Source: an uncultured bacterium | GTDB lineage: Bacteria; Patescibacteriota; Minisyncoccia; UBA6257; 2-01-FULL-56-20 | NCBI GenBank assembly: GCA_963844965.1 | Contig: CAWJQC010000004.1 | Location: 41,609-105,608, forward strand | Direction: 5' to 3' | Length of the DNA stretch: 64,000 nt | Shown here: positions 1,464 to 53,182 of the stretch, in pieces | How the letters are laid out: each line of letters begins with the position of its first letter | Position numbering within the stretch: position 1 is the first letter of the stretch | Position numbers and translations under genes: made by a program | Notes under the pieces: model-generated | The model's input: the letters and a program-made list of their open reading frames with translations, nothing else | Database searches by the model: none | Told to the model about the DNA's origin: nothing

Positions 1464-1495
1464 AAAAACGCCCCGTTCATCGGGGTATTTTTGTT
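1464..1495. terminator. bidirectional intrinsic terminator
   Basis: aaaaaCGCCCCGttcatCGGGGtattttt: a GC stem flanked by an A-run and a T-run, lying between the convergent mgtC-like gene and rnpB. Confidence 0.7.
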
Positions 1496-1903
1496 GCTGG
1501 CAATCCGTAAGCCGGATTCTGTCGCGCCTGCCTGTCGGCAGACGATGCGATCATTTATCTGGGCCCTTGATTGCTCGCGGGCTCAAGCGGCACTTCCACC
1601 TCATCGGCGGACACGGCCTTGCACCCAGTAAGGATTTAGCCGTTTCATCTCCACTTTTTTATCCCTATGGCGGAGCTGGACCGACTAGCTTGGGATTGGG
1701 TCCGTCCGACTTTTTCAAATCGGACCGTTTCTGCTCGCACCTCTATTCTTACGAACGACGGCTGTTAGCCGCTACTATTTTATCCCTCCCCAGTTTTGCC
1801 AGTAATGTCACTGGCAAAACTGGGGAGGGATGGTGTCCGGACTTTCCTCCCTACATTTTCTAGAATTTTAAGAAAATGTAGGGCGATCGCCTAGATTGCC
1901 AGC
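1496..1903 (-). ncRNA. rnpB: RNase P RNA (bacterial type)
   Basis: The minus strand carries GGGAGGAAAGTCCGGACACC (CR-I) near the 5' end and ACAGAATCCGGCTTACGGATTGCCAGC (CR-V/P4 region) at the 3' end. The 5' GCTGGCAATC pairs with the 3' GATTGCCAGC to form P1. Confidence 0.9.
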
Positions 1904-3162: not shown

Positions 3163-3595
3163 CTATAACCCATTCTTGTTCAAAACCTCATTCACGACTC
3201 TATCCGCTTTTCTGTTCTCCTCGCGCGGCACGTGGCGGAATTCCACCATTTTAAAGTCAAATTTCAAATTCCATACACCGACGAACAGTGGCTGCAGGTT
3301 TTCTTCCATGATCTTATACTTGCCGTTCAGTTGTTTCACCACGAGTTCGGAATCCATCCTTATTTCAACATCCGACTCCTTCGCTTTCGCTTTGCCAATG
3401 AGCTGTTTTATTTTTTTAAGCGCGAAAATGACCGCTTCGTATTCGGCCTGATTGTTGGTCTTCTCGCCTAGATATTCGCCATATTCTTTATTATCAATCA
3501 CAACCCCGATAGCGGCCGGACCTGGATTTCCCCTGGAACCGCCGTCGGTATAAACGACGTATCTTTGATTCTTTGAATAATTGACCCTTCTTCAT
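3163..3595 (-). CDS. rnhA: ribonuclease HI, interrupted by one frameshift near 3560-3590
   Basis: The ORF gives VVYTDGGSRGNPGPAAIGVVIDNKEYGEYLGEKTNNQAEYEAVIFAL...RHVPREENRKAD, the RNase H catalytic motifs. The in-frame upstream stretch has no start codon. An ATG at 3595 overlaps the upstream gene's stop as ATGA but sits in another frame. Confidence 0.7.
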
Positions 3596-4545
3596 TTTAG
3601 CCTTTCAACAACTTCCATAGCGACCCTTCCAGCGTCTTCCTTACTTTTGAAGAAAGCACCCGCGGCGCCCTTGTGGCCGCCGCCGCCGTATTTTGCCATA
3701 AGTTCACCAGCATGAATTTTTGCCTCGCGCATTCGCCAGGGATTCGCTGAAAGCCCTACCTCAAAAAGGTTGTCGCTCCTTTGCAGGCGGACGGCATAGA
3801 TGGTCTTCGGATAAAGATAGTATGGCGCGAACCGCAGCTTGCCGCTACCTGCCAATGTCAGGTCTATAAATGTCGCCTTGCCGCGAACTTTTATGTTCTT
3901 CCGGTAAAATCTCAATCCCAATCTTATCTTTTTGCGCGCACCGGCTGCGCATTCCTGAACGCGCGGGTCTTTAGCTATTTCCCTGAGCGACTTCCGGGAA
4001 AGAAGGTCTATGAGCGGCCGGCGCGTGCTGTTATCATTGGCGTTCTTTTCAATGAAGGCGTCAATGCGGAGTGCCGGCTCCTTTACTTCAAGCGTCTGCT
4101 TGGCGGATCCATAACCCGCTCCGTCAATAATGTCCAGCCATTTCGTCAACTCCTTGAAGTGCTTGGGTGGTTTCCAGTCGAAACCGACGCGCAGTGACGC
4201 CTCGGTAAAATGGCACGCCGACTTATACGACGGATCGTAACGGCGGAACTTGGATGGTCTGAACTTTTTCCGCCAGCTTTCTTTCTGAAAAGCGGTCGGA
4301 TGGTGGTCAAACCAAAAAAAAGCCCCTGGGTGGTATTGGAAATCCAAAACGATGGCCGGATTGCGCCTGCCGCGGAAGAGTTTGTGCTTCAAAAAGAATT
4401 TTTCGTCCCGCCACTGCGGTAAAATATCAAAACCGAGAGGAACATAACGCTCAATATCGTCGCCGCGGTCGCGCAAAAATGCAAGCATCACCGCCGCTGA
4501 CGCCCATCCGTCAAAATCGTTGTGAAAATAGACGTCGTAAGTCAT
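3592..4545 (-). CDS. DHH-family phosphoesterase (DHH/DHHA1)
   Basis: 317 aa. It has an N-terminal HNDFDGWAS motif (DHH motif I-like) and a C-terminal GGGGHKGAAG (DHHA1 GGGH motif). Confidence 0.6.
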   Translation of the reverse strand: MTYDVYFHNDFDGWASAAVMLAFLRDRGDDIERYVPLGFDILPQWRDEKFFLKHKLFRGRRNPAIVLDFQYHPGAFFWFDHHPTAFQKESWRKKFRPSKFRRYDPSYKSACHFTEASLRVGFDWKPPKHFKELTKWLDIIDGAGYGSAKQTLEVKEPALRIDAFIEKNANDNSTRRPLIDLLSRKSLREIAKDPRVQECAAGARKKIRLGLRFYRKNIKVRGKATFIDLTLAGSGKLRFAPYYLYPKTIYAVRLQRSDNLFEVGLSANPWRMREAKIHAGELMAKYGGGGHKGAAGAFFKSKEDAGRVAMEVVERLK

Positions 4546-4769: not shown

Positions 4770-5033
4770 ATGAGCAACAAAAAAGGGCATCGGATTGCAA
4801 AGGAAGTGAAGGCGGACATCCTCCGCCGCGTGAAGGAAGAAGGCGTTTCGGTGGCCCAAGCCGCGAAGGACCACGGCTTGCACGAGTCCACCATCTATAA
4901 CTGGCTCGGAGCCGGAGCGGCAGGCGCTCCCTCGTGGAGCGAGTTCTCCCGCCTGCAGAAGCAGAACCGCGAGCTCTTTGAGGTGGTGGGCGAGCTCACC
5001 GTGAAGCTCTCTCAGGCCCAAAAAAAGAGTTGA
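4770..5033 (+). CDS. IS3-family transposase OrfA (HTH)
   Basis: MSNKKGHRIAKEVKADILRRVKEEGVSVAQAAKDHGLHESTIYNWL is a helix-turn-helix of IS3/IS911 OrfA type, followed by a leucine-zipper-like tail. Confidence 0.85.
   Translation: MSNKKGHRIAKEVKADILRRVKEEGVSVAQAAKDHGLHESTIYNWLGAGAAGAPSWSEFSRLQKQNRELFEVVGELTVKLSQAQKKS
5020..5027 (+). promoter_or_regulatory. programmed -1 ribosomal frameshift site (A7G) giving OrfAB
   Basis: The run AAAAAAAG sits just before the orfA stop. Slipping by -1 reads ...QKKELTEKRDKS, continuous with OrfB. This is the canonical IS3-family arrangement. Confidence 0.75.
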
Positions 5034-5812
5034 CGGAGAAACGGGACAAGTCGGCCCTGGCCAGGGCCATGGGCGTCTCACGGGCATCGCTCTACTACGT
5101 TCCGAAACAGTACGCGAAGGATTGGGCATTCAAGATCCTGATCGAGGAAGAGCTGCGGCGCCATTCCTCGTACGGCTCGCGGCGCCTGGCGCAAGCCCTC
5201 CACGCGAACCGCAAACGGACCAGGCGTGTGATGAAGCTCTTTGGCATCAAGCCATACCGGAGGCGGGGCAAGAAATATCGTAAATCAAAGGCATCGCGGG
5301 CCTTTCCGAACCTCTTACTTGCCATCATGCCCTCGTACGCGAACCACGTCTGGGCAACCGATTTCACGGAGTTCCTGTATCGCGGCAAGAAAGTGTACGT
5401 GTCCACGATACTCGATCTTTTCACGAGACGATTGATGGGCGTCCATGTGGCGTTGCGGAAAGGATCGCCCCTCACGATACAGACCCTGGCCAACGCGCTT
5501 TTCCACCATCCGCATCCGGTCATCTTCCATTCGGACAACGGCAGCGAGTACAAGGCACGAGCGTTCACCGATACACTGGGGGACTGTGGCATCACGATCT
5601 CGCGGTCGCGGCCCGGTGCCCCATGGGAAAACGGCTACCAGGAATCGTTCTATGACAAGTTCAAGATTGACCTCGGTGATCCCAACCGGTTCGGGACCTT
5701 CGGCGAGCTCGTGGCGGAGATCTACAGCACCTTGTGGCAGTACAACCACACGCGGATCCACTCCGCCCTCAAGATGCCGCCGTCCGTGTTTGCCGAGAAG
5801 ATTGCGGCTTAA
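5030..5812 (+). CDS. IS3-family transposase OrfB (DDE/rve integrase core)
   Basis: WATDFTEF, HSDNGSEYKA and PWENGYQESFY are rve-domain DDE motifs. It lies in the -1 frame relative to orfA. Confidence 0.9.
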   Translation: MTEKRDKSALARAMGVSRASLYYVPKQYAKDWAFKILIEEELRRHSSYGSRRLAQALHANRKRTRRVMKLFGIKPYRRRGKKYRKSKASRAFPNLLLAIMPSYANHVWATDFTEFLYRGKKVYVSTILDLFTRRLMGVHVALRKGSPLTIQTLANALFHHPHPVIFHSDNGSEYKARAFTDTLGDCGITISRSRPGAPWENGYQESFYDKFKIDLGDPNRFGTFGELVAEIYSTLWQYNHTRIHSALKMPPSVFAEKIAA

Positions 5813-8027: not shown

Positions 8028-9906
8028 TTAAACGGTCCCTCGGGGTGACGCGCGGAACGCAGCCTCAACATCCAGGTCCTCCCAGCCGGCTTTCTTCAAT
8101 TCGCCGCGAATCACGTCGTCCACAAACGCGGCGGCGCGGGCGGCCCTGATATATTCCACGAGCTCCGGATTCTGGGAACCGGCTTGGGTTGATTTCACTT
8201 CCGCGGCCGGAGAAGCGGCGGTTGCGGCGTCCGCGCTAACTTGCCGCGCGGCTTCAGGGTTCGCCGCTGAAGCCGCTGAATTGTTTTTCTCCGCTTCTTC
8301 CCGCGTCGCCTCATGTTTTATAAGTTCTTTCTCTTCCGTCTCCAGCTTCACTATTTCCTCCTCCTCTTTTTTCATCCGCTTGCGAAGCATGACTACGACA
8401 AACGCCGCTATTATCAGAACCAACACTCCGCCGCCCGCGATAAGCCACGCGGTGAGTCCGACTCCGCTCAGCCGCTCCTTTATGACATCCCATGGCGTAT
8501 CAAGCGACCCGCCCGCGGCGATAAGCGCCGCGCACTGCTCTATATACGGGTCAGCGTATTTGTTTACGGAGAATTTCGCGTCGGAATTCTCGGCTATCTT
8601 GAATTGCTCCGTCGCTTTCTTGCACTGCTTGGCGTGCAGAAGCGCGAGACCCTGTTCCATTGAATCGGTGAAGCCGCTTGTATCGTTTTTCAGCGACTGT
8701 GCGTCAAGCGCGGCTTTCGCCAGTTCAACCGGAACGGCGGATGCGAAATTATCCCCTAAAATGTCGCTGAGCCCCGATTCAAATGTCACCAAACCAATGA
8801 CCTCTCCGTCAGCTCCGAAGAGCGGCCCTCCGCTTGAACCTTCGGAGATCTTCGCGTCCGATTGCAATATTTTGAAATCCTTATTTTGGGAATCTTTGAT
8901 GGCGGTTATCACTCCCTGTGTGAACGTCGGCTCAAGATAATCTTGCGACCCGATACTGGGCCGTACCCGGAAAGCCAAACACGTAAATTTTCTGGCCGAC
9001 AGCGGCCAACGCCGAAGCGCCGAGCTTCATGGCCGCGAGGTTACTTTCGCCAATCTTAAGAATAGCGACGTCCTTGTCGTCAAGGTTGTAGTTATCATTC
9101 ACGCTCAAAACCGTTGCCGGAAACGAATCTTTGATAAGTTCGGTGAGTTTTTGTTTCGTTGATGTCGGATTCAGCACGACGACCTCCCGCAAGATGTCAA
9201 AGCGGCTGTTGGCTTCCAGGGCGGATAAAATTTTCTTTCCATATTCTTCTCCCATGCTTTCCGCATCCAGCGAGTCAATCCCTTTATCTTTATAATACTT
9301 TTCCAAGTCCTGTATTTCATTCGGTTTCAAGGAGAACATTTCTTTGAATATCACCGACGTCATAGCCGCGCCGAGTATCGCCTGCCGCATGGTCTCTTCC
9401 GAAACAACATGGGAGTTTGTGAGGACCAGGCCGGATGGATTCACGACGAAACCGCTGCCCGCGAGATACTGCTCCGTGGAAGTGCCGTTAACGGCGCCTG
9501 ATTTCGGAAACGACACGGCAAACGTTCGGAGGTCAATGCTAAAATCGGGCACCGTTGAGGTTACCAGGAAATGCGTGAGCACCCGAACAATGGACGGCTT
9601 CGTTATGTCCGCCAATTCCTCTTCGCTCATCGCGAGCGGCTGCGGCGTGGGCATGCTCCAAAGATCGGAGAGCGACGCCGTCCCCGATCTCCCACCGCCG
9701 GGCAAACTGCGGAGAGCAACGGCGCCCAAAAACGCCGTGCTCACAAAAAGCGCGACCAAAAACAAAAAGAGCGGTAGCCATATCCGTCCACCTTCCCTAC
9801 CGTTGCCGATAAATGGCATGTATAAATTATAACAAACCCGGAATGAGCCTGGCACTTCACGACAACTTAAACGTGGGTCTGAATTAACTCGTTCAAATCC
9901 AGCCAA
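8028..9906 (-). CDS. trypsin-like (S1C/HtrA-like) serine protease with a C-terminal TM segment, split by one frameshift near 8950-8965
   Basis: The upstream ORF carries the His and Asp regions (GSGFVVNPSGLVLTNSHVV, DVAILKI). The downstream ORF carries the Ser motif (SEGSSGGPLF). The frames join at ...IYVFGFPG / SIGSQDYLEPTFTQGVI. Confidence 0.7.
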
Positions 9907-10200: not shown

Positions 10201-10452
10201 CTAGGCGGCACCGGCCGTGTCGGATTTGTCCTTGCTTATGCCGAGCTTGTTCATTAAACCCTTTCTCGTTTTCTCCAGCTCGGGCAACAGCACTCGGTCC
10301 TCTACCGTAGAATTACCGGCTCCCATCCACATGTTCAATTCTGCAATCCGCTTCTCAAGATTCTTAAGCTCGGCTATATCGGCCTCGCGCCTTGCCATTT
10401 TTGCCTCATCCTCTAACCTTTTTTCTTTTCGTTCAAACCATCCCATAAACAA
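10201..10452 (-). CDS. hypothetical small coiled-coil protein
   Basis: An 83 aa ORF between tRNA genes with charged repeats (EDEAKMARREADIAELKNLEKRIAEL). No family recognised. Confidence 0.4.
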   Translation of the reverse strand: MFMGWFERKEKRLEDEAKMARREADIAELKNLEKRIAELNMWMGAGNSTVEDRVLLPELEKTRKGLMNKLGISKDKSDTAGAA

Positions 10453-10540
10453 ATGTTAGCAAGCAAACGCCACAATATCAATATTTATGCCTACGCGTCT
10501 TATTTAAACCGAACTGTTTTACCCCACACTTTCCGCCGAA

Positions 10541-10600
10541 TGAGCCGAGGAGAGGAGTCGAACCTCCAACCTACGGTTTATCCCGATTTTGCAAAATTTG
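10541..10600 (-). pseudogene. tRNA-like 3' fragment (variable region, T-arm, acceptor 3' strand) lacking an anticodon arm
   Basis: The minus strand reads ...GTAGGTTGGAGGTTCGACTCCTCTCCTCGGCTCA: T-stem GGAGG/CCTCT, T-loop TTCGACT, acceptor 3' strand CCTCGGC. No D or anticodon arm can be drawn from the adjacent sequence. Confidence 0.55.
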
Positions 10601-10605
10601 CCTTG

Positions 10606-10677
10606 AGCCGGCGGTCGGATTTGAACCGACGACCTGCTGTTTACAAAACAGCTGCTCTGCCGCTGAGCTACGCCGGC
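10606..10677 (-). tRNA. tRNA-Thr (anticodon TGT)
   Basis: The minus strand reads GCCGGCGTAGCTCAGCGGCAGAGCAGCTGTTTTGTAAACAGCAGGTCGTCGGTTCAAATCCGACCGCCGGCT, with anticodon loop TTTGTAA. It is flanked on both sides by the palindrome ATTTTGCAAAA. Confidence 0.9.
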
Positions 10678-10792
10678 AATTTTTTTGCAAAATCGCGGAC
10701 TCGCGATATTGTAAGCAAATCGTAGATTTGCACAATATCGGAGCAAAACCGTTGCTCCCTGCCCCGCACCGAGCTTTGCTCTGGTGCGCGGG

Positions 10793-10812
10793 TGCCATTG
10801 AACTACCTCGAC
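10793..10812 (-). other. tRNA-like 5' fragment (acceptor 5' strand plus D-loop motif)
   Basis: The minus strand reads GTCGAGGTAGTTCAATGGCA. GTCGAGG pairs 7 of 7 (one U-G) with the CCTCGGC of the 3' fragment at 10544..10550. TAGTTCAATGG is a standard D-arm/loop motif, but the D-stem 3' strand is missing. Confidence 0.45.
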
Positions 10813-10871
10813 AAATATGCCTGAACCCAAAAATTATTCTAACAGAAAATTGAAAAATCGGCAATTTTCAT

Positions 10872-10901
10872 CAAAAAAGCCCCGCGCTCGAAGCACGGGG
10901 C
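10872..10901 (-). terminator. intrinsic terminator after the 10913..11152 ORF
   Basis: The minus strand reads GCCCCGTGCTTCGAGCGCGGGGCTTTTTT. Confidence 0.65.
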
Positions 10902-10912
10902 TACTCAAAATA

Positions 10913-11152
10913 TCATTGCGCCAATACCTTGTTAGGTTGAGCAACTTGCCGTCTCCCGGTGTATCCCCTGATCTCACTCAGCCCGGCATAAATGACGTGA
11001 CCAACCATCAATTCCGGACGATCTTCGTCCATACCCCCTACAAACTCACAGGGAAAACCGGCTCCCATAACAAGCTGGCAAGCATCCCTTGATTCGTTTG
11101 ACACTCCAAAGATCAGAAGGGCTTCATCTCTGATGGGGATTTCTGTTGCCAT
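10913..11152 (-). CDS. hypothetical protein
   Basis: An ORF with its own terminator; the likely start is MATEIPIRDEALLIF. No family recognised. Confidence 0.35.
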   Translation of the reverse strand: MATEIPIRDEALLIFGVSNESRDACQLVMGAGFPCEFVGGMDEDRPELMVGHVIYAGLSEIRGYTGRRQVAQPNKVLAQ

Positions 11153-11311: not shown

Positions 11312-14300
11312 ATGTCCAAGTTCACGCATCTCCATATCCACTCCCACTATTCTCTGCTTGACGGCCTCACAAAAATTGACGACCTTGTCGCGCGGGTAAA
11401 GGAACTCGGAATGGATTCGGTAGCGCTCACCGACCACGGCGTTCTCTACGGCGCCGTTGAATTTTACAAAAAGGCGCGGGCCGCCGGCATAAAACCGATC
11501 CTCGGCCTCGAAACCTACGTCGCGCCGAGGGACAGGTTCAGTAAAGAAACGAGTGAGCGGTATTATCACCTCATACTCCTCGCGGAAAGCAACACCGGCT
11601 GGAAAAATCTCATAAAACTTTCCACCAAAGCGCACCTGGAAGGGTTTTATTACAAACCCCGCGTTGACAAAGACCTTCTGCGGGAATGCCACGAGGGACT
11701 CATCGCGCTCTCGGCATGCCTAGGCAGCGAGATCGGCCAGGCGCTCCTTGAAGGCAACACGGAAAAAGCTGAGCGCATCGCTCGGGAGTATGAAGAAATA
11801 TTCGGCAAAGGAAATTATTTTCTGGAGATCCAAAAACATCCGCGCATTGCCGATTCAGAAAAGATAGAGACGGGACTCATAGACCTGTCGCGCGCTACCG
11901 GCATCCCTCTCGTCGCCACGCAGGACAGCCACTACCTCCGCTCAGAGGATGCGGAATACCACGACGTGCTTCTCGCTGTGCAGACCGGCAATCAACTCGC
12001 CGACCAGGACCGCCTGACGATGAAAGACGATGACTTCTCCCTCCTTTCTCCGGAAGCAATGGCGGAAAAATTCGTGCGCGTTCCCGAAGCCATCGCCCAG
12101 ACTTCCGTTATCGCCGAGCGCTGCAATGTTGAACTGCAACTCGGAAAAGTTATCCTGCCGAATTTTCCCAAGCCGGAGGATAAAACCGCGAACGAATACC
12201 TGAGCGACTTGATAAACGAAAAGATCGGTAATCGCTTCACAAAAGAAAAACAAACTCCTGAACTTTTGAAGCGATTGGAATACGAGCTCACTACGATCGA
12301 GAAGACCGGATTCGCCGATTACTTTTTGATAGTCGCGGACATGATCAACTGGGCCAAAACCCACGGCATAGCCGTAGGCCCTGGCCGCGGTTCCGCCGCC
12401 GGAAGCCTGGCTTCGTATATCCTCGGCATAACGGACATCAATCCGCTTGAATACAACCTCCTTTTTGAGAGATTCCTGAACCCCGACAGGGTTCAAATGC
12501 CGGACGTTGACATGGATTTCGCCGACACGCGGCGCGATGAGGTCCTGGCATATCTGCGCGAAAAGTACGGCACCGACCATGTGGCGCAGATAATAACTTT
12601 CGGAACGATGATGGCGAGAGCGGCGTTGCGGGACGCGGGCCGCGCGATGGGATTTAGCTATAATTTCTGCGACCAAATCGCCAAGCTGATCCCGTTCAAT
12701 CCGACACAAGGAATGAAAGAAGGATGGCTGGACAGGTGTCTCGCCATGGTGCCGGAACTTAAATCCACCTACGAAGGCAATGTGGACGCCAAGCGCCTCA
12801 TTGACACCGCACGGCATCTTGAAGGAGTGGCGCGCCACGCGTCGGTCCACGCCTGCGGTACGGTGATCTCCAAAGAGCCGCTCGTGAATTACCTGCCGTT
12901 GCAGCTCGCGCCACAGGACAAAAACAATGTCATCACACAATTTGAGATGCACAGCGTGGAAGACCTGGGACTCCTCAAAATGGATCTCTTGGGACTCAGG
13001 AACCTCACCGTAATAGAGGAAACCGTACGCCTCGTGAAAGACACGCGCGGCGAGGAGTTGAAAATTTCCGAACTGCCGCTCAACGACAAAAAAACATTTG
13101 AACTTCTGCGGGCGGCGAACACCACGGGCGTCTTCCAGTTCGAAAGTTCCGGCATGAAACGCTATATGAAGGAAATTGAACCGACAAGCATTGAAGACCT
13201 AATCGCCCTCGTCGCTCTTTTCCGCCCCGGCCCGATGGAACTTATTCCGTCCTTTATCAATCGCAAGCATGGGCGGGAAAAAATCACATATCTTCATCCC
13301 CTGCTTGAACCAATCCTAAAAAACACCTACGGCATCGGCGTTTATCAGGAACAAATGATGCAAATCGCCCGCGACCTCGGCGGCTACACGCTCGCGGAAG
13401 CCGACACCCTGCGGAAAGCGATCGGCAAGAAAATAAAAAAACTTCTGGACGAACAGAAAGAAAAACTCATAAGCGGCATGCGCAAAAAAGGCATACCGCA
13501 AAAGACGGCGCAAGCTATCTGGGAACTCTTCCCACCTTTTGCGCGCTACGGTTTCAACAAATCGCACGCCGCCTGCTACGCCCTGATCGGCTACCGGACT
13601 GCATATCTCAAAGCGCACTATCCGGAGGAATTCATGGCGGGACTCCTCAATTCCGAGCTGAGCGATATTGACCGCATCTCGGTTCTCATAGAAGAAGCGA
13701 AGCAGTCCAACATCGGGATACTGCCGCCGGACATTAATAAAAGTTTCGTAAATTTCACACCAGAGGGAGAAAAAATCAGGTTCGGTCTGGTAGCTGTGAA
13801 AAATGTCGGCGAAGAGATAGCGAAGAACATCATAGAAGAACGGATCCGCGGCGGCCCGTTCAAGAATTTTGAGGATTTCCTCTCGCGGGTTCAGCACAAA
13901 GACCTGAACAAAAAATCCCTGGAGTCGCTCATAAAAGGCGGCGCGTTTGACTCGCTTGGCGTGGAGCGCAATCAGGCCCTCCAAGGAATGGAGGATGTGC
14001 TCAGGTTCGCGAACGTTTTCCGCAAAGGCGCAGCATCCATGAATGGCAGAAGTACTTCCCTCTTCGGTGTGAGCACGCCCAAAGCTTCGTTAAAATTGAA
14101 AATTGTTCCGCCGGCGACAAACGAGGAAAAGCTTGCCTGGGAAAAGGAACTCCTCGGATTCTACCTGTCCGAGCATCCTCTGAAGGCCTACGAGAAAAAA
14201 ATAAACGGCTACAACGCGAAGCCGATATCCGAAGTGCGGAAGATAACGAACGGCCAGCTTACGGTGCGGACCGCGGGCCTTGTCTCACAAATCAAAAAAA

Positions 14301-14509
14301 TTCTCACGAAGAACGGCCAGCCGATGCTCTTCGCGAAAATTGAGGACCTCTCCTCGCAGCCTATTGAGGTTGTCGTATTCAACAGCACTTTAGAAAAAAC
14401 GGCGAAGGCCTGGGTTCTAAACAACGTCGTCCTGCTTGAAGGCCGCGTCAACTGGCGCGACAACGAACCCAAAATCATCTGCGAGCGAGCGGCGAAGCTG
14501 GAAGCGTAA
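11312..14509 (+). CDS. dnaE: DNA polymerase III alpha subunit
   Basis: 1065 aa. It has a PHP domain (HLHIHSHYSLLDG), a polymerase core (GPGRGSAAGSLASYILGITDINP, MPDVDMDF) and a C-terminal OB region. The reading frame is intact. Confidence 0.95.
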   Translation: MSKFTHLHIHSHYSLLDGLTKIDDLVARVKELGMDSVALTDHGVLYGAVEFYKKARAAGIKPILGLETYVAPRDRFSKETSERYYHLILLAESNTGWKNLIKLSTKAHLEGFYYKPRVDKDLLRECHEGLIALSACLGSEIGQALLEGNTEKAERIAREYEEIFGKGNYFLEIQKHPRIADSEKIETGLIDLSRATGIPLVATQDSHYLRSEDAEYHDVLLAVQTGNQLADQDRLTMKDDDFSLLSPEAMAEKFVRVPEAIAQTSVIAERCNVELQLGKVILPNFPKPEDKTANEYLSDLINEKIGNRFTKEKQTPELLKRLEYELTTIEKTGFADYFLIVADMINWAKTHGIAVGPGRGSAAGSLASYILGITDINPLEYNLLFERFLNPDRVQMPDVDMDFADTRRDEVLAYLREKYGTDHVAQIITFGTMMARAALRDAGRAMGFSYNFCDQIAKLIPFNPTQGMKEGWLDRCLAMVPELKSTYEGNVDAKRLIDTARHLEGVARHASVHACGTVISKEPLVNYLPLQLAPQDKNNVITQFEMHSVEDLGLLKMDLLGLRNLTVIEETVRLVKDTRGEELKISELPLNDKKTFELLRAANTTGVFQFESSGMKRYMKEIEPTSIEDLIALVALFRPGPMELIPSFINRKHGREKITYLHPLLEPILKNTYGIGVYQEQMMQIARDLGGYTLAEADTLRKAIGKKIKKLLDEQKEKLISGMRKKGIPQKTAQAIWELFPPFARYGFNKSHAACYALIGYRTAYLKAHYPEEFMAGLLNSELSDIDRISVLIEEAKQSNIGILPPDINKSFVNFTPEGEKIRFGLVAVKNVGEEIAKNIIEERIRGGPFKNFEDFLSRVQHKDLNKKSLESLIKGGAFDSLGVERNQALQGMEDVLRFANVFRKGAASMNGRSTSLFGVSTPKASLKLKIVPPATNEEKLAWEKELLGFYLSEHPLKAYEKKINGYNAKPISEVRKITNGQLTVRTAGLVSQIKKILTKNGQPMLFAKIEDLSSQPIEVVVFNSTLEKTAKAWVLNNVVLLEGRVNWRDNEPKIICERAAKLEA

Positions 14510-38949: not shown

Positions 38950-40132
38950 CCGCTCCTGCGCCGACCGTCTTGCCGCCTTCGCGGATGGCAAAACGCTGTT
39001 TTTCTTCAAGCGCGACCGGGAAATGAGTTTCACGGTGAGTTTAACGGTGTCGCCCGGCATGACCATTTCCATGCCTGCCGGCAAGGGTCACTTCGCCCGT
39101 AACATCGGTCGTCCTGATATAGAACTGCGGCTTGTAGCCGTTGAAGAACGGCGAGTGGCGGCCGCCTTCCTCTTTTGAAAGCACGTAAACCTCGCGCTCG
39201 AATTCCGTGTGCGGCGTGACGCTGCCCGGCTTCGCGACAACCTGCCCGCGCTCCACGTCTTCTTTCTTCAGGCCGCGGAGCAGAACGCCGACGTTGTCGC
39301 CCGCCATGCCTTCGTCCAAGAGTCTTATTGAACATTTCAATGCCCGTGACGACGGTCTTCTGCCGTCGGCCTGCAGGCCGACGATCTCCACTTCTTCGTT
39401 CACTTTCACCTTGCCGCGCTCCACGCGGCCGGTCACGACCGTGCCGCGTCCTTCAATCGAGAAGATGTCTTCGATCGGCATAAGGAACGGCTTGTCGAAG
39501 TCGCGGACCGGATCGGGAATGAATGTCATCCACCGCTTTGATAAGGTCCAAGATCGGTTTCGCGTCCGGGTCGTCGGCGATTTCGCGGCCAACGCTTTCA
39601 AAGCCGAACCGCGGATGATCGGAGTCGTGTCGCCCGGGAATTCGTATTTCTTCAAAAGCTCGCGGACTTCGGACTCAACGAGATCAATGAGTTCCGGATC
39701 GTCCACCTGATCGCACTTATTAAGAAACACGACGATGGTCGGCACGCCGACCTGGCGGGCAAGCAAAATGTGCTCGCGCGTCTGCGGCATCGGGCCGTCG
39801 GTCGCGGCGACGACCAAAATCGCGCCGTCCATCTGCGCGGCGCCCGTGATCATGTTCTTGATATAGTCGGCGTGTCCCGGCGCGTCAATGTGCGCGTAGT
39901 GGCGCTTCTCGGATTCGTACTCCGAATGGTGCAGGGCGATCGTGATGCCGCGCGCCTTTTCCTCCGGAGCGTTGTCAATTTGGTCCACTCTCTCTTCTTT
40001 CTTCGTCAGACCCTTCAAATGCAAAACGTGCATAATCGCGGCGGTCAGGGTCGTCTTGCCGTGGTCAACGTGGCCGATCGTGCCGATGTTCATGTGCGGC
40101 TTGGCCCGGTAGAATTTTTCTTTTTCAGCCAT
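38950..40132 (-). CDS. tuf: elongation factor Tu, with four apparent single-base indels
   Basis: The N-terminus is canonical ([53 protein letters not shown]). A compensating pair near 39515-39527 and 39585-39600 scrambles [21 protein letters not shown]. Two more, near 39075-39085 and 39015-39020, break the C-terminus (..[20 protein letters not shown] / [29 protein letters not shown]). Confidence 0.88.
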
Positions 40133-41436: not shown

Positions 41437-43541
41437 TTACCGTTTTTTGCCTTCGATAATCAACTGCGCAATGTTCTGCGGCACTGGCTCATAATGGTCA
41501 AATTCCATCGTGAACGCTCCCCTGCCTTGCGTCATGGAACGCAACTCGGTCGCGTAGCCGAACATTTCCGCGAGCGGAACTTTGGCGTCAATCACTTTCA
41601 CGTTGGGCCGGTCGGAAATTTCCTCAATCCTGCCGCGCTTGGAGTTCAAGTTGCCGCTCACCTCGCCCAAAAATTCTATCGGGATGATAACCTGAAGCTT
41701 CATTATCGGCTCCAATATGACCGGCTTCGCGCGCTTCGCCGCTTCCTGCAGGGCGATGGAGCCAGCAATTTTGAAAGCCGCCTCCGACGAGTCAACTTCA
41801 TGGAAAGAGCCGTCATAGAGCGAAACTTCAAGGTCGGTCATCGGGTAGTGGGCAACGACCCCCTTACTCAATGCTTCCACCACACCTTTTTCCACCGCCG
41901 GGATGAATTCGTTCGGAATGATCCCTCCCTGATATCGTCTATGAAAACAAATCCCTTGCCGCGCTCCAAGGACTTCACGCGCAGCCAGACATGTCCGTAT
42001 TGTCCGCGGCCGCCGGATTGCCTGATATATTTGCCTTCCGCCTCCGCTTCGCCCATAATCGTTTCTTTATAGGCAACCTGCGGCCGCCCCACCGAACCCT
42101 CAACACCGAACTCCCGCTTCATCCTGTCAACAATAATTTCCAGGTGCAACTCGCCCATGCCAGAAATAATCGTCTCGCCAGTTTCCAGGTCGCCCGCCAC
42201 GCGGAAAGTCGGGTCTTCTTCCGCCAAGCGGTGCAGGGCAATGCTCATTTTTTCCTGGTCGGCTTTCGTCTTCGGCTCAATGCGAATGCCGATCACCGGC
42301 TCGGGGAATATGATCTTCTCAAGCACTATCGGCGCGTCGGGACTGCAAAGCGTGTCGCCGGTCGTCGTATTCTTCAAACCGACGATCGCCGCGATATCTC
42401 CGGCATGCACTTCCTCCATTTCTTCGCGGTGGTTGGCGTGCATCCGCACCACGCGGCCGACACGTTCCTGCTGGTCCTTCTTGGAATTCAAAACGTACGT
42501 GCCGCGCTTCAAAACGCCGGAATAATTCCGGAAATAGGTTAAAGTGCCGACGTACGGGTCTGTCGCAACCTTGAAAGCCAGCGCCGAGAACGGCTCTTCG
42601 TCCTTGGGGTGCCGCACGATATCGGCGCCGCTCTTCGGGTCAATGCCCTTAACCGGAGGAAGGTCCGTCGGCGCGGGCAAATATTCCACAACCGAGTCAA
42701 GCATAAATTGCACGCCTTTGTTTTTCAGGGCCGAACCGCAAAGCACCGGCACAATTTTGTTGGCAATAACGGCTTTGCGCAAAACGCGGCGCAAATCTTC
42801 AATGTCAAGCTCAGTACCATCCAAATACTTGGTCATCAAGGCATCGTCATTGTCCACAATGCGTTCCACAAGTTCATGCCGCGCCTTCTTCACGTGCACT
42901 TTCATATTTTCCGGCATCGGAATTTCTGTAATCTTTTCGCCATGTTCACCCTCCGAGCCGTACGCCTTTTCGGTTAAGAGGTCTATCATTCCCACGAATT
43001 CACCCTCAAGGCCGATGTTCAACTGCAAAGGCAGTGCGTTCGGCGTGAGCCGTTCTTTGATTGACTGCAAACTTTTTTCAAAGCTCGCACCCAAGCGGTC
43101 AAGTTTGTTAATAAAGCAAATCCGCGGCACGTGGTACTCATCGGCATAGCGCCAGTTCGTTTCCGACTGCGGCTCAACACCTGCGACGCCATCAAAGACG
43201 ACAACCGCGCCGTCCAAAACGCGGAGCGAACGCTTCACCTCCACCGTAAAGTCAATGTGCCCCGGCGTGTCAATCAAATTTATCATATGCTCAAATTTTT
43301 TGTCGCCCTTGCGGTAAGTCGGAATCCAGAACGCCGTCGTTGCGGCGGAAGTAATCGTAATTCCCCTCTCACGTTCCTGCTCCATCCAATCCATCACCGT
43401 GTCGCCCGTGTGCACCTCGCCGATTTTGTGACTGACGCCCGTATAAAAAAGCACCCGTTCGCTCACGGTGGTTTTGCCGGCATCTATATGGGCGATGATG
43501 CCGATGTTACGGACCTTCTCGACAGGATACATTCTAGGCAT
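41437..43541 (-). CDS. fusA: elongation factor G, split by one frameshift near 41920-41933
   Basis: [35 protein letters not shown]. At ..FIDDIR the frame slips; adding one G in atcaGGGaGGGatc restores [30 protein letters not shown], which joins the two track ORFs. Confidence 0.9.
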
Positions 43542-46121: not shown

Positions 46122-46221
46122 ATCAACAATAATATCCGAAAACCGCGGTCTTTGCCAATTAAGAAAAAACAAATTAAAATGAGCATGTCGCCCTCGTGGT
46201 GAAACTTGCCCTCCCACCTTT

Positions 46222-46294
46222 GTCCCTGTAGCTCAACGGATAGAGCGTGTGGCTTCGAACCACAAGGTTGCAGGTTCAAATCCTGCCAGGGACG
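46222..46294 (+). tRNA. tRNA-Arg (anticodon TCG)
   Basis: GTCCCTGTAGCTCAACGGATAGAGCGTGTGGCTTCGAACCACAAGGTTGCAGGTTCAAATCCTGCCAGGGACG, with loop CTTCGAA. It is bracketed by the perfect inverted repeat CCCTCCCACCTTTG / CAAAGGTGGGAGGG. Confidence 0.9.
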
Positions 46295-46321
46295 CAAAGG
46301 TGGGAGGGTGAAGATATCATA

Positions 46322-46367
46322 TGTGGCTTCGAACCACAGGTTCCAGGTTCGAGTCCTGGCGAGGGCA
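46322..46367 (+). pseudogene. 3' fragment of a different tRNA-Arg(TCG) (anticodon arm to acceptor 3' strand)
   Basis: TGTGGCTTCGAACCACA is identical to the anticodon arm of the neighbouring gene. It is followed by a different T-arm (CCAGGTTCGAGTCCTGG) and acceptor strand (CGAGGGC). There is no 5' acceptor or D-arm. Confidence 0.7.
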
Positions 46368-46883: not shown

Positions 46884-48221
46884 CTATTTCTGCAAGCTCA
46901 GAATTTTATTCCTGAACGTCAACTTACTCTTGAAGCAAGATAGCAATTCGCGTTTCTCGACCGTGCTGCCCTTTTTGAGAAGATATTTTGCGTACGTTTT
47001 AAGGTCAATTTCTTTAGTGGCCGCTTTCGATCCTTCTCCCAAGACATCGTTCGCGAATTTGCGATATCGTTCCATCTCGTCTTCGAATTTCTTCTGCATC
47101 CCAATCTCACTGATATCCATCTCGTCAATGATAGCGAGAAGTTGAGCGATCAATTCCTCTTCGCGAATGTATCCGCACTTGCAATCCTTATCTTTCGAGC
47201 GTGAGCATCCATAGTACACGTACCGCGCCGTCGTTCCATCCTTGTGCGCCTTATATTTCTCGCACGCACTGATGCCCGATCCGCATAGGCCGCACGAGAT
47301 CAGTTTCGTAAACGAAAATTCCTTTATCTCCGACCTGATGACAAAATCTCGGTGCAGCTGCTCCTGTACTTTATCGAACAGCTCCCGCGAAATGATTGCT
47401 TCGTGCTTGCCGCTGTACCAGTTACCGCTCTTCAGTGGATACTCAAAGATGCCGCAGTAAAATGGATTTTTGAGGATGATATAAATATTGGATAACGAAA
47501 GCACTTTCCCATTCTTTGTTCTGAATTTGATTTCCGACTTCAGCCAATGATAAAGCTTCCGGCCCGACCATTGTTCGTCGGCGACTTTCTGGAGCATTTG
47601 CTTGATGACGGGCGCTCGCAGGGGATCAATGATAACTTCACAAGGACGGTCGGTGCTCTTCTCGTTAAGATACCCTGTCGGTGCGATAGACGGACGCAAA
47701 CCTTGTTCGCACCGCATCCGTAATCCGCGCTTCACGTTTTCCGATTTGTTATCATTCTCAAGTTTCGCTTGGCTGCACAAAATCATCAACATGAATTTCT
47801 CGCTCGGCGAGTTCGTGAATTTCTGGCTGAAGGTTCTGATCTCGATAAGTAATTTTTGATCCATCAAGTCCACCAAGCCGCCAAGGTCGCCCGCGTTGCG
47901 GCTCAAGCGATCCGGCGCCCATGTAAGGATACCGTTGAATTCGCCGGAACGAATATCAATAAGCAACTCGTTAAAAATTTTTCGCTGGCCGACAGCTTTT
48001 GCGGAATGGCTTTCCTTTCTAACTTCGGCGATCTCAAGGTTATCGCGCTCGGCGATTTTCAGCATCTCCTTTATCTGACTATCAATGGAAAGCACTTGCT
48101 GTTCCTCGCTCTCCGTACTTTTCCTCGCATAGAGGCAGTATTTTATTTTTATCGCTTCGGCCTTTGTCGCAGAAACGCCCGACTGATCCCAGCCCTTTGG
48201 TATATTTGTTATTTTCTCCAT
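46884..48221 (-). CDS. large serine recombinase (resolvase domain, recombinase domain, zinc ribbon)
   Basis: YCLYARKSTESEEQQVLSIDSQ (catalytic Ser region), LTWAPDRLSRN, later CGLCGSGISAC...YYGCSR. About 445 aa from MEKITNIPKGW. Confidence 0.85.
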   Translation of the reverse strand: MEKITNIPKGWDQSGVSATKAEAIKIKYCLYARKSTESEEQQVLSIDSQIKEMLKIAERDNLEIAEVRKESHSAKAVGQRKIFNELLIDIRSGEFNGILTWAPDRLSRNAGDLGGLVDLMDQKLLIEIRTFSQKFTNSPSEKFMLMILCSQAKLENDNKSENVKRGLRMRCEQGLRPSIAPTGYLNEKSTDRPCEVIIDPLRAPVIKQMLQKVADEQWSGRKLYHWLKSEIKFRTKNGKVLSLSNIYIILKNPFYCGIFEYPLKSGNWYSGKHEAIISRELFDKVQEQLHRDFVIRSEIKEFSFTKLISCGLCGSGISACEKYKAHKDGTTARYVYYGCSRSKDKDCKCGYIREEELIAQLLAIIDEMDISEIGMQKKFEDEMERYRKFANDVLGEGSKAATKEIDLKTYAKYLLKKGSTVEKRELLSCFKSKLTFRNKILSLQK

Positions 48222-48377
48222 ACCTAAGGGATGCCGCAACGGCGGAAGGAGTCCAGAGCATCCTTGTCGGTAACTCAAAACTCGATATCAGGCGACGAAG
48301 GGGCAAAGAAGGCAAGCAGAGTGATTTCCCCAGCCACCCTCTTTAAGACCATTTATAAACGAGCTATAATAATTCTA

Positions 48378-52648: not shown

Positions 52649-52880
52649 AAGCCACCTCCTTTTCCAGATTCAACCAACTGCTTCCACTCTACCAAAAAGC
52701 GGGAAAAAATCCAGAACCTGTCCAAGTCGTTGCGGAAAGACGTTTTTGGATATAAAATAATAAAACCGGCCGCGAAGCCCGACATAATCAGCGCCATTCG
52801 GCTTAATAAAAATCCGCCCATAGCTCCCACCTTCGCCGAGGCTTCGGCGGGCAAGCAACTGGCCCCGCACCAAAATTTAT

Positions 52881-52953
52881 CCGCGCGTAGCTCAACTGGC
52901 AGAGCAGCTCCCTCTTAAGGAGACGGTTGCAGGTTCGACTCCTGCCGCGCGGA
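52881..52953 (+). tRNA. tRNA-Lys (anticodon CTT)
   Basis: CCGCGCGTAGCTCAACTGGCAGAGCAGCTCCCTCTTAAGGAGACGGTTGCAGGTTCGACTCCTGCCGCGCGGA, with loop CTCTTAA. It is bracketed by the inverted repeat CCCGCACCAAAATTTAT / ATAAATTTGGTGCGGG. Confidence 0.88.
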
Positions 52954-53132
52954 CTGGAAAAATTAAGGATAAATTTGGTGCGGGTTAGACGCCGCAGCTC
53001 TCCTCTTACAACCGCGTAGCGAGGCGAGGATAAAAATCGCCAATTTTTATTTTCGCCGAGCGAGCGGGTGGCGAAACAGGTTTTCGCAGGAAAAGGTTCC
53101 AGGTTCAAGTCCCTGCTTGCCAGCAGGCAGGC

Positions 53133-53182
53133 AGGTGGGCGGACACAGAATCGAGGATCTCCGGCAGCTCACCTCTTTTTTA
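53133..53182 (+). terminator. intrinsic terminator closing the tRNA-Lys transcription unit
   Basis: AGGTGGGCggacacagaatcgaggatctccggcaGCTCACCTCTTTTTTAT. Confidence 0.55.

Follow-up and report, generated by a model that had tools for sequence, protein, structure and literature searches.

Why should the two halves of one tRNA gene stand apart and enclose a second, complete tRNA? The question is raised by the minus strand at positions 10812-10541 of a 64-kb stretch of DNA from an uncultured bacterium (referred to below as the window), where a first-pass annotation had noticed tRNA-like 5′ and 3′ halves around an intact tRNA-Thr. We found that these halves make up a whole tRNA-Thr(UGU) gene with two clean insertions, one of which is a 163-nt cassette bearing another tRNA-Thr(UGU). 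Probably, a miniature cassette, non-autonomous and site-specific, has invaded a resident tRNA-Thr(UGU) gene here and brought the replacement with it, and the nested arrangement looks like a previously undescribed way to replace tRNA genes. The literature searched, whose coverage was incomplete, contained no account of tRNA genes nested within cognate tRNA genes. The evidence base is DNA sequence throughout.

The sequences quoted in the first-pass annotation were all confirmed at their places on the minus strand. The acceptor strands GTCGAGG (10812-10806) and CCTCGGC (10550-10544) do pair in 7 of 7 positions, including one U2-G71 wobble, the T-arm preceding the acceptor 3′ strand is canonical (GGAGG-TTCGACT-CCTCT), and the complete tRNA-Thr(UGU) between the halves (10677-10605) is recognized by both ARAGORN and the Rfam tRNA model (72.7 bits). 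The statement that no anticodon arm could be drawn for the outer tRNA was wrong: the arm consists of the ACGGT/ACCGT stem and the UUUGUAA loop, split at 35/36. The outer gene can be read as three exons. The first (10793-10812, minus strand) comprises the acceptor 5′ strand GTCGAGG, U8 and A9, the D-stem 5′ strand GTTC and the D-loop AATGGCA; it is homologous to intact tRNA-Thr genes of the GCCGGAG/GCCGAGG type in relatives, and the 5′ exon sequence specific to the outer copy is GUCGAGGUAGUUCAAUGG... It is followed by a 35-nt GC-rich hairpin, CCCGCGCACC-AGAGCAAAGCTC-GGTGCGGGG, then CAGG (10758-10792, minus strand). The hairpin CCCGCGCACC..GGTGCGGGG noted at first is thus present, but it is an insertion within the outer D-loop; it is missing in intact relatives and in the related locus L082 (loci in relatives are denoted by L and a number). 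The second exon (10744-10757, minus strand) contains the D-stem 3′ strand GAGC, A26, the anticodon-stem 5′ strand ACGGT and the loop residues U32, U33, U34 and G35 (TTTG). The third (10541-10580, minus strand) starts at 10580 with U36, A37 and A38 and continues with the anticodon-stem 3′ strand ACCGT, the variable loop AGGTT, the T-arm, the acceptor 3′ strand CCTCGGC, the discriminator T and CA. The cassette lies exactly between G35 and U36 of the anticodon loop; once joined, the second and third exons read ..ACGGUUUUG|UAAACCGU...

When both insertions (10792-10758 and 10743-10581) were deleted in silico, ARAGORN called a 73-nt tRNA-Thr(tgt) with 21 of 21 stem pairs, three of them G-U, the D-loop AATGGCA, the T-loop TTCGACT and the anticodon loop UUUGUAA. 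With the insertions in place, neither ARAGORN (default, intron and lowered-threshold runs) nor Rfam RF00005 saw the outer gene, and only the inner tRNA was reported. The sole extra call of ARAGORN with introns of 0-400 or 0-3000 nt allowed, or in the transfer-messenger RNA (tmRNA) and lowered-score modes, was a spurious low-score tRNA-Ala on the opposite strand, and the outer gene was still not called when the cassette was deleted and the D-loop hairpin kept. The two insertions alone are the cause of these misses. The rejection of both fragments by covariance models, proposed earlier as a refutation, was indeed observed but is misleading, since it is the insertions that bring it about. A promoter-like site of the sigma-70 type, TG-extended (TTGCCG-17-TAGAAT; 10836-10864, minus strand), was found by a consensus scan; it stands about 20 nt before the outer 5′ end, and a terminator-like hairpin (10902-10878, minus strand) lies in front of it. 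The outer gene starts with GTC (U2-G71) as opposed to GCC in 87 of the 87 ARAGORN-callable tRNA-Thr genes of the window and the loci (one with a shifted boundary), so that the tRNA-Thr set of the clade, G1-C72, C2-G71 and C3-G70, is incomplete in it. With this change of C2 to U and the D-loop hairpin, the outer halves are best read as a young relic.

The cassette (10743-10581) consists of a 66-nt 5′ arm, the 73-nt inner tRNA-Thr(UGU), presumably the functional copy, and a 3′ arm of 24 nt, such that its non-tRNA part amounts to 90 nt. The 5′ arm (10678-10743, minus strand) starts with CTCC and bears the hairpin GATATTGT..ACAATATC, whose apex varies, then the invariant GAGTCC and the 5′ strand of a leader-trailer helix, CGATTTTGCAAAA; homologues of this arm occur in L011, L046, L082, L161, L206 and L232. 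The 3′ arm (10581-10604, minus strand) contains the opposite strand of the helix, TTTTGCAAAATCG, ends with GGGA and includes a 10-nt complementarity to the uninterrupted target loop, GUUUUGUAAA; most cassette copies have a 3′ arm complementary to the loop of the ligated exons. The arms pair beneath the inner tRNA in a stem that covaries in relatives. Hence the two copies of the palindrome ATTTTGCAAAA, described earlier as bracketing the tRNA-Thr, are real but represent the two strands of one covarying leader-trailer helix. Among the other hairpins listed at first, GATATTGT..ACAATATC is the conserved cassette hairpin, GGAGCAA..TTGCTCC is an alternative pairing of exon sequence (the D-stem 3′ strand and A26) with the first cassette bases, and ATCGCG..CGCGAT is a second small hairpin with partial support. 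The cassette ends are imperfectly inverted (CTCCGATATTG.. / ..CAAAATCGGGA). They follow (C)TCCGAT(A/T)TTG / CAA(A/T)ATCGGGA, and other cassettes end in TCCCG../..CGGGA or CCCC../..GGGG; such ends are equally readable as an RNA stem. We call the type of cassette found in the window type 1. The consensus scan found no promoter-like site within the cassette, and the 163-nt insert contains no open reading frame (ORF).

An exact look-up of the window DnaE gave no match, and relatives were reached by way of homologous proteins. The window DnaE (11312-14509) is 60-75% identical to the DnaE proteins of metagenome-assembled genomes (MAGs) of Patescibacteria (Parcubacteria/Paceibacteria, Liptonbacteria-like) and 89% identical to that of GCA_040960625.1, and in many Parcubacteria a tRNA-Thr(UGU) gene lies upstream of dnaE on the opposite strand. 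The sample of relatives is small, with about 18 nested loci and a bias towards dnaE-linked loci and one conserved hairpin pattern. The latter, GATATTGT N14-20 ACAATATCG, was used in a metagenome scan that gave at least 120 loci; nearly all the matches listed are chance palindromes, the true homologues among them being L082/L134 and L161. The type-1 cassette was found at the same 35/36 site in at least seven Parcubacteria loci, namely the window, L011, L046, L082/L134, L161, L206 and L232, each time with the CTCC start, the hairpin GATATTGT..ACAATATC, GAGTCC, the leader-trailer helix, an inner tRNA-Thr and the ATCGGGA end. L011, L046, L206 and L232 are linked to dnaE, while the metagenome contigs L082/L134 and L161 carry the cassette in other neighbourhoods (def-mraZ and thrS-miaA, respectively). 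The outer acceptors at these loci differ (GTCGAGG, GCCGGAG, GCCAGGG, GCCACCC and GCCATCC), and removal of the insertions in silico likewise yields an ARAGORN-called tRNA-Thr in L011 and L082. In the consensus fold of a five-sequence alignment, 97% of cells are paired and 23 of the 67 pairs show double changes, a level reached by none of 500 shuffles; covariation is seen at 8 of the 18 pairs of the leader-trailer helix, and the GATATTGT/ACAATATC stem, GAGTCC and the termini are invariant.

The TTTTG|TAAA site is also home to cassettes of other types: CGAAAGCCCCGCACC.. in L028 and L035, CTTGTCCCTCACC.. in L202 and CCCGCCTGCC.. in L204. The comparison of an empty and a filled site is direct: L208 has the uninterrupted ..GCAGTGCTTTTGTAAAGC.., and L028, with an identical 5′ exon, has a cassette after TTTTG and no target duplication. 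A target-site duplication was found at the Thr 35/36 junctions in none of the copies. Thus, the view that insertion of a structured cassette with a tRNA-Thr broke up a tRNA gene, put forward at first as one option among several, fits both the anatomy and the comparative data, and the disrupted gene can now be named as tRNA-Thr(UGU). A script that looked around 123 tRNAs for enclosing halves (downstream, a T-arm with an acceptor 3′ strand; upstream, a fully complementary 5′ strand followed by the position 8-11 motif) returned six pairs on the sense strand and none in the opposite-strand control. In the sample examined, helix-flanked tRNA cassettes were absent from neutral DNA and occurred only inside cognate tRNA genes, and long leader-trailer helices belonged to nested tRNAs only. 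The nested architecture was found in more than ten independent MAGs and metagenome contigs.

The nested loci clearly differ in the state of their outer shells. In all of the roughly 18 loci the innermost copy is an intact tRNA, and none of the loci examined relies on an interrupted copy alone. The outer gene ranges from intact (window, L011 and L082) through a single mismatch (L046) down to debris, with decaying shells in L201, L202, L203, L028, L161, L206, L044, L031, L036 and L038; L203 retains a 5′ fragment only, and the 3′ half is truncated in L028. Extra GC-rich hairpins pile up only in outer copies, in the D-loop, D-stem and T-loop. D-loop hairpins of the outer gene also occur at L011, L046 and L161 and in no sole-copy tRNA-Thr, and CCCGC..GCGGG hairpins related to the D-loop insertion of the window sit at the identical 21/22 position in L035 and L031. 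Moreover, the nesting is serial: in L232 a type-1 cassette lies at 35/36 of a GCCATCC.. tRNA that is itself carried by another type-1 cassette, and further layers are seen in L204/205, L206 and L038. The inner and outer tRNA copies are only 71-75% identical; because of this low identity, and because the junction is exact in many lineages, an origin by tandem triplication plus deletion was rejected.

The closest relative, L201 (DnaE 89%), shares with the window the promoter with its leader and, from the outer gene, the 5′ strand of the acceptor and the final 32 nt, which are identical in both; it differs in D-region hairpins, a defective outer anticodon loop, another helix and another inner tRNA. 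From promoter to outer acceptor the two are about 88% conserved, and the intergenic DNA around this block cannot be aligned. In L046, the 3′ exon from the variable loop AGGTT to the 3′ end (32 nt) is identical to that of the window and mismatched with the 5′ exon of L046 itself. The innermost tRNA of L206 is identical to the inner tRNA of the window in 73 of 73 positions, with DnaE proteins only 72% identical. Recombination and transfer at tRNA-Thr loci are visible in the mosaic exon of L046 and the inner tRNA of L206.

The same nesting is present twice more in the window. An outer tRNA-Arg(UCG) on the plus strand (46190-46367; GCCCTCG TG GTGAA .. GATATCAT .. CGAGGGC A), whose D-loop is interrupted and lacks the conserved GG, encloses a complete tRNA-Arg(UCG) (46222-46295, plus strand; preceded by ACTTGCCCTCCCACCTTT and followed by AAAGGTGGGAGG(GTGAA)). 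The inner copy rests on a 13-bp helix, CCCTCCCACCTTT / AAAGGTGGGAGGG, and the cassette is flanked by a 5-nt direct repeat, GTGAA. Rfam gave 30.2 bits for part of the outer copy, and ARAGORN called it as tRNA-Arg(tcg) once the insertion had been removed in silico. At the second locus, a tRNA-Lys(CUU) (52881-52954, plus strand) stands on a 16-bp helix (52863-52880 / 52969-52984) within heavily decayed remnants of an outer tRNA-Lys (52814-53143, plus strand). The outer acceptor strands, CCGCCCA (followed by TAGCTC, at 52814) and TGGGCGG (followed by A, at 53136), are 320 nt apart, and between them lie a degenerate Lys anticodon-arm fragment (52994-53013, plus strand), a CCTGC..GCAGG palindrome (53112-53135) and extra hairpins. 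In relatives, tRNA-Val (L023) and tRNA-Trp (L037) are nested in the same manner. The flank CTTGCCCTCCCACCTTT / AAAGGTGGGAGGG is common to cassettes with different tRNAs, those of the window Arg locus and of the Thr loci L206, L202 and L201.

Taken together, these data point to the following sequence of events. The cassette would land between G35 and U36 and destroy the resident tRNA-Thr(UGU) gene, and the cell would survive because the cassette brings the same isoacceptor. The inner copy would be transcribed from the resident promoter (10864-10836), and RNase P together with 3′ processing would presumably free the inner tRNA. The split resident gene, which we infer to yield no working tRNA, would then drift, as the window copy may already do with its C2-to-U change and its 35-nt D-loop hairpin. 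As the intact copy of the moment could be hit again at the same site, the process would repeat and produce Russian-doll nests. This scheme gives a role to the cargo tRNA, which is needed only if the interrupted gene is not rescued by splicing. It is further supported by the fact that it is always the outer copy that decays, by hairpins confined to outer copies, by the C2-to-U change in the outer gene, by serial nesting and mosaic exons, and by the same nesting logic at the Arg and Lys loci of the window and the Val and Trp loci of relatives. Such a cassette resembles miniature inverted-repeat transposable elements and hairpins of the repetitive extragenic palindrome type in being small and non-coding, with (imperfectly) inverted ends that fold into a stem, and GC-rich palindromes such as CCTGCCTGCCGGCAGGCAGG stand at several places of these genomes. 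It is unlike these elements in that its cargo is a functional tRNA gene, there is no target duplication at the Thr site and, in the sample examined, insertion is only into the cognate tRNA gene.

Several observations weigh against this preferred explanation. No transposase or recombinase could be tied to the cassette: the rve transposase at 5.0-5.8 kb and the serine recombinase beside tRNA-Arg are not demonstrably linked to it, and the Pfam scan of the 55 ORFs of the window revealed no cassette-linked transposase. A tyrosine- or serine-recombinase site was rejected as well, as a common core is absent and the two junctions cannot be fitted with one central dinucleotide, and the Thr site lacks a target duplication. 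The restriction of helix-flanked cassettes to cognate tRNA genes is not predicted by a model of purely random insertion plus selection. The outer exons retain 21 of 21 stem pairs in the window and L011 and 20 of 21 in L082, differ among these three by compensatory changes, and are conserved like the inner tRNAs (83-88% vs. 74-84%); the 3′ half of the outer gene is 100% conserved among the window, L201 and L046. The cassette core (GATATTGT/ACAATATC, GAGTCC and ATCGGGA) does not vary at loci with intact exons and has degenerated at those with a dead outer gene (L206 and L204), a correlation that fits either the age of the element or a function in splicing. Finally, the G-U pairs in the conserved hairpin indicate a structure at the RNA level on the sense strand.

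These points lead to the strongest rival, that the outer tRNA-Thr(UGU) gene is functional and that the intron in its anticodon loop, home to a second tRNA, is removed at the RNA level, giving two tRNAs per transcript. The intron would, for instance, be excised by tRNA-processing enzymes at the helix ends and ligated, or would act as a new ribozyme, and would spread by homing into intron-less tRNA-Thr(UGU) genes. We consider this doubtful, and likewise the intron-bearing precursor proposed in the first-pass annotation is less likely than disruption. The exact, duplication-free insertion at one anticodon-loop position across many backgrounds is nevertheless what an intron would show, as are an invariant core adjoining the splice sites with a covarying periphery, the decay of this core where the exons are dead, and the retention of all or nearly all stems, with compensatory differences, by the exons of the window, L011 and L082. 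In most copies the 3′ arm is complementary, like a guide, to the loop of the ligated exons, and the modelled junction geometries may resemble substrates of RNase P and RNase Z. Doubtful to a somewhat greater degree is a fuller version, in which the cassette belongs to a new class of bacterial tRNA introns, neither group I, group II nor of the archaeal bulge-helix-bulge (BHB) kind, that is inserted at 35/36, encodes a second tRNA, is released by RNase P- and RNase Z-like cuts plus ligation, and homes via its 3′ arm as a mobile RNA-level element in Patescibacteria. The RNase P-like cut may fall at the base of the 12-bp hairpin and the RNase Z-like cut after the leader-trailer helix.

One argument against splicing is the cargo: a tRNA with the same anticodon would be pointless if splicing restored the host gene. 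Moreover, the 35-nt D-loop hairpin, which has counterparts in L011, L046 and L161 and none in sole-copy tRNA-Thr genes, would have to be removed as well or tolerated; C2 is replaced by U at a position invariant in 87 tRNA-Thr genes; the acceptor of L046 contains a mismatch; and at most nested loci the outer gene is plainly dead, the inner copy never being the one lost. The cassette without its tRNA is just 90 nt long and matches no known ribozyme or intron family of Rfam: at the gathering score and at E <=10 there was no group I or group II intron, tmRNA, known self-cleaving ribozyme or YrlA above noise. The Pfam scan of the window, which is 64 kb of the genome, also gave no RtcB, EndA or RNA ligase, and we know of no splicing endonuclease in this bacterium.

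Known intron classes were rejected one by one. Group I introns at position 35/36 of other tRNA genes of Patescibacteria, where the only tRNA copy is interrupted, have a core that matches or resembles that of group I, self-splice in vitro, follow the rule of U at -1 and a terminal G, and contain no tRNA (Nakagawa et al. 2026, PMC13011429). The preference of these introns for 35/36 speaks in favour of splicing (PMC13011429), and they share with the present locus the phylum, the anticodon-loop position and the fact that the interrupted genes are missed by standard tRNA finders. The window cassette is unlike them in that it gives no group I signal, is bounded by G|C and A|U, has 90 nt of non-tRNA sequence and contains a tRNA with the same anticodon. 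The Rfam family Intron_gpI (RF00028; catalytic core P3-P9) was matched neither at the gathering score nor at E <=10 with relaxed filters (10350-10950). The boundaries that restore UGU are G35|C and A|U36, contrary to the rule of a 5′ exon U and an intron-terminal G; forcing this rule gives the anticodon UAU in a Thr-type body, which was rejected as less parsimonious. A group I core needs about 200 nt or more, and the cassette, with 163 nt of which 73 are the inner tRNA, is below this length.

In archaea, disrupted tRNA genes include those with multiple introns and split and permuted tRNAs, processed at bulge-helix-bulge motifs, and the introns can host C/D box RNAs; the BHB motif has two 3-nt bulges containing the splice sites and a 4-bp helix between them. 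The present loci are similar in that one gene may have several insertions at non-canonical positions (D-loop, anticodon loop and T-loop), a long helix extends from the splice-site flanks, and the insert hosts another functional RNA. They differ in the bacterial host, in the hosted RNA being a tRNA with the same anticodon, and in the absence of a BHB at the junctions. The consensus fold of five homologues contains no bulge-helix-bulge: the 5′ site lies at the foot of an uninterrupted 12-bp helix, after which comes UCC, and the 3′ site is in a junction, after one unpaired A following the long helix.

Still less probable, in our view, is that the nests are debris of classical integrations, in which a prophage or island with an integrase and a cargo tRNA-Thr was later deleted down to the essential tRNA and the nest was spread among relatives by homologous recombination via the conserved exons and flanks. 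Here the nearest known precedent is the tRNA-dependent lysogeny of actinobacteriophages, where a mobile element interrupts an essential tRNA gene of the host by integration and leaves it unrestored; this element is a prophage of 40-60 kb that has a tyrosine integrase and a common core of about 10 bp, and the cargo tRNA is encoded at another place within it (Guerrero-Bustamante and Hatfull 2024, PMC10865867). That such lysogeny is documented favours the debris scenario (PMC10865867), and there is a true likeness in the split outer and complete inner Thr(UGU), as well as in the Arg(UCG) and Lys(CUU) nests. The Thr locus is unlike it in comprising a 163-nt unit at the anticodon 35/36 site, with no enzyme gene, no phage genes, no integrase and no shared core, in the use of the resident promoter, in serial nesting and in its Patescibacteria host.

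Islands and prophages that integrate into tRNA and tmRNA genes restore the gene and leave fragments of the old one (Islander; Williams laboratory; PMC4383910), the product being an intact hybrid tRNA and a displaced duplicate fragment in direct repeat (PMC4383910). Our loci share with these the tRNA gene as a target and the old-gene fragments left behind, but the outer pieces are complementary halves of one gene, without duplication, around a complete and separate tRNA. An integrase island was therefore rejected: the outer pieces are non-overlapping halves, no repeat is present at the junctions, and the insert contains no ORF. For the same reasons, and for want of a duplicated attachment (att) fragment, a shared core or a target duplication, the earlier suggestion of an integration scar finds no support in the classical integrase sense. 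Williams is said to have listed the anticodon loop in 2002 as a known crossover sublocation in tRNA genes. A large serine recombinase within 0.5 kb of the nested tRNA-Arg, the mosaic exons of L046, which indicate recombination at the locus, and displaced 3′ tRNA fragments, typical of island ends, downstream of tRNA-Thr in L201 and L208 would agree with debris. Random deletion remnants, however, should not leave arms that pair with each other, covary and are conserved in distant lineages; in L232 this small cassette invaded its site a second time; no phage or integrase genes adjoin the Thr nests of the window, L082 and L161; the junctions share no att core; and scans of a viral collection with two cassette motifs gave chance matches only.

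More improbable again is that the outer acceptor and T-arm are kept as a tRNA-like shell serving RNase P and 3′-end processing or stability instead of decoding, an idea that could be added to cassette invasion without contradiction. It would explain why the last 32 nt of the outer gene and the block of promoter, leader and acceptor are conserved between the window and L201 despite the defective anticodon loop of L201 and unalignable neighbours. The predicted minimum-free-energy fold of the whole 275 nt, which is closed by the outer acceptor stem (-121.7 kcal/mol, z = -7.4 vs. shuffles), would also suit it. On the other hand, the outer T-arm is lost or disrupted in L028, L206, L203 and L044 with the inner tRNA kept, and the identity of the 3′ half is also explicable by recent recombination, as in L046. 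The remaining readings, as a non-coding RNA that is like a tmRNA or otherwise tRNA-like, as a coincidence or as an artefact of assembly, which the tmRNA-like topology of an acceptor and T-arm around a structured insert and possible indel errors in the window might suggest, are effectively refuted by the comparative data. The ARAGORN tmRNA mode (-m) was empty, the best Rfam tmRNA match had 10 bits (E = 0.7), pair 3:70 is C-G with no G3-U70, U is the discriminator, the exons have ordinary tRNA-Thr genes as orthologues, and the arrangement recurs in independent assemblies with six pairs against none in the control search.

Some further observations concern the surroundings of these loci. Possible indel errors have to be considered in the window because fusA (41437-43541, minus strand) appears as two overlapping ORFs, tuf (39041-40132, minus strand) is apparently truncated in domain 3, and a trypsin-like protease (8028-9906, minus strand) is split over two ORFs; these may be either assembly errors or real frameshifts, and the nested architecture is corroborated by independent assemblies despite them. 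Between the outer tRNA-Thr(UGU) and a tRNA-Thr(GGU) lies an 83-aa coiled-coil-like ORF (10201-10452, minus strand) without Pfam matches, which has its own promoter-like site (10481-10453) and is absent from this place in L201. The palindrome of about 20 nt, CCTGCCTGCCGGCAGGCAGG, recurs in L011, L028, L206, L203, L038 and at 53112-53135 of the window, in outer tRNA copies (D-stem 23/24, or between the T-stem and the acceptor) and in the dnaE upstream region, and behaves like a small mobile palindromic element. The beginning of dnaE repeats the pattern of the tRNAs: a remnant of an old start (ATGCCAAAGTTCACCCA.. or ATGYCAAARTTC) comes first, next a GC-rich hairpin (CCCCGCACC.. or CCTGCCTGCCGGCAGGCAGG), and last the whole gene, which has a start of its own (L201 at about 4900-5020, L206 at about 2380-2500, L028 and L038 just upstream of dnaE, possibly L207), which suggests hairpin insertion and local replacement in a protein gene too. 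In L201 (about 4290-4480, minus strand) and L208, inserts of about 150 nt downstream of tRNA-Thr(UGU) are followed by a repeated tRNA-Thr 3′ fragment (..ATCCGACCATCGGCTCA and ..CCGTCGGCTCA); the appearance is that of displaced att fragments of the classical kind, belonging to integrated elements that have been reduced.

The large serine recombinase (46884-48278, minus strand; Resolvase, Recombinase and Zn_ribbon_recom domains) lies 0.5 kb downstream of the nested tRNA-Arg, and ORFs without Pfam matches run from it to the tRNA-Lys locus; an integrated element may occupy the stretch that separates these tRNA loci. An rve (DDE) transposase ORF (5030-5812, plus strand) and an RNase H/RVT_3-like ORF (3163-3501, minus strand), with a low-GC stretch near 6-8 kb, are evidence of other mobile DNA in the window. 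The RNase P RNA (1493-1902, minus strand; 100.2 bits vs. the Rfam threshold of 100) contains a perfect 48-nt hairpin at 1783-1830 (TCCCTCCCC..GGGGAGGGA) with C-rich and G-rich ends as in the tRNA cassettes; as evidence on hairpin removal it is uninformative, for its structural position cannot be reliably placed in the model. The intergenic segment 62671-62943 (plus strand) has four strong GC-rich hairpins, the first being ACCCCCACACCAAACGAGGAC..GTCCTCGTTTGGTGTGGGGGT, matches no Rfam family at the gathering score, and may represent either a structured RNA or accumulated hairpin elements. RecG helicase (53624-56305, plus strand) bears a PD-(D/E)XK nuclease domain between its two helicase lobes (residues 447-558).

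If cassette invasion is the true explanation, a tiny selfish element can repeatedly hit an essential single-copy tRNA gene by bringing the same tRNA with it. The principle of tRNA-dependent lysogeny, so far a matter of large prophages, would be extended to a 163-nt non-coding unit, which raises the question of which enzyme moves it. If, alternatively, the outer gene is spliced, the locus would represent a new kind of bacterial intron with an intron-encoded tRNA. Under either reading, the exact junction, the conserved core and the empty and filled sites provide testable targets. Invasion by self-replacing cassettes would explain the rapid turnover and horizontal exchange of tRNA genes in Patescibacteria and the graveyards of tRNA halves beside working tRNAs, and would in part explain the odd behaviour of tRNA finders and completeness estimates in the reduced genomes of these ultra-small bacteria.

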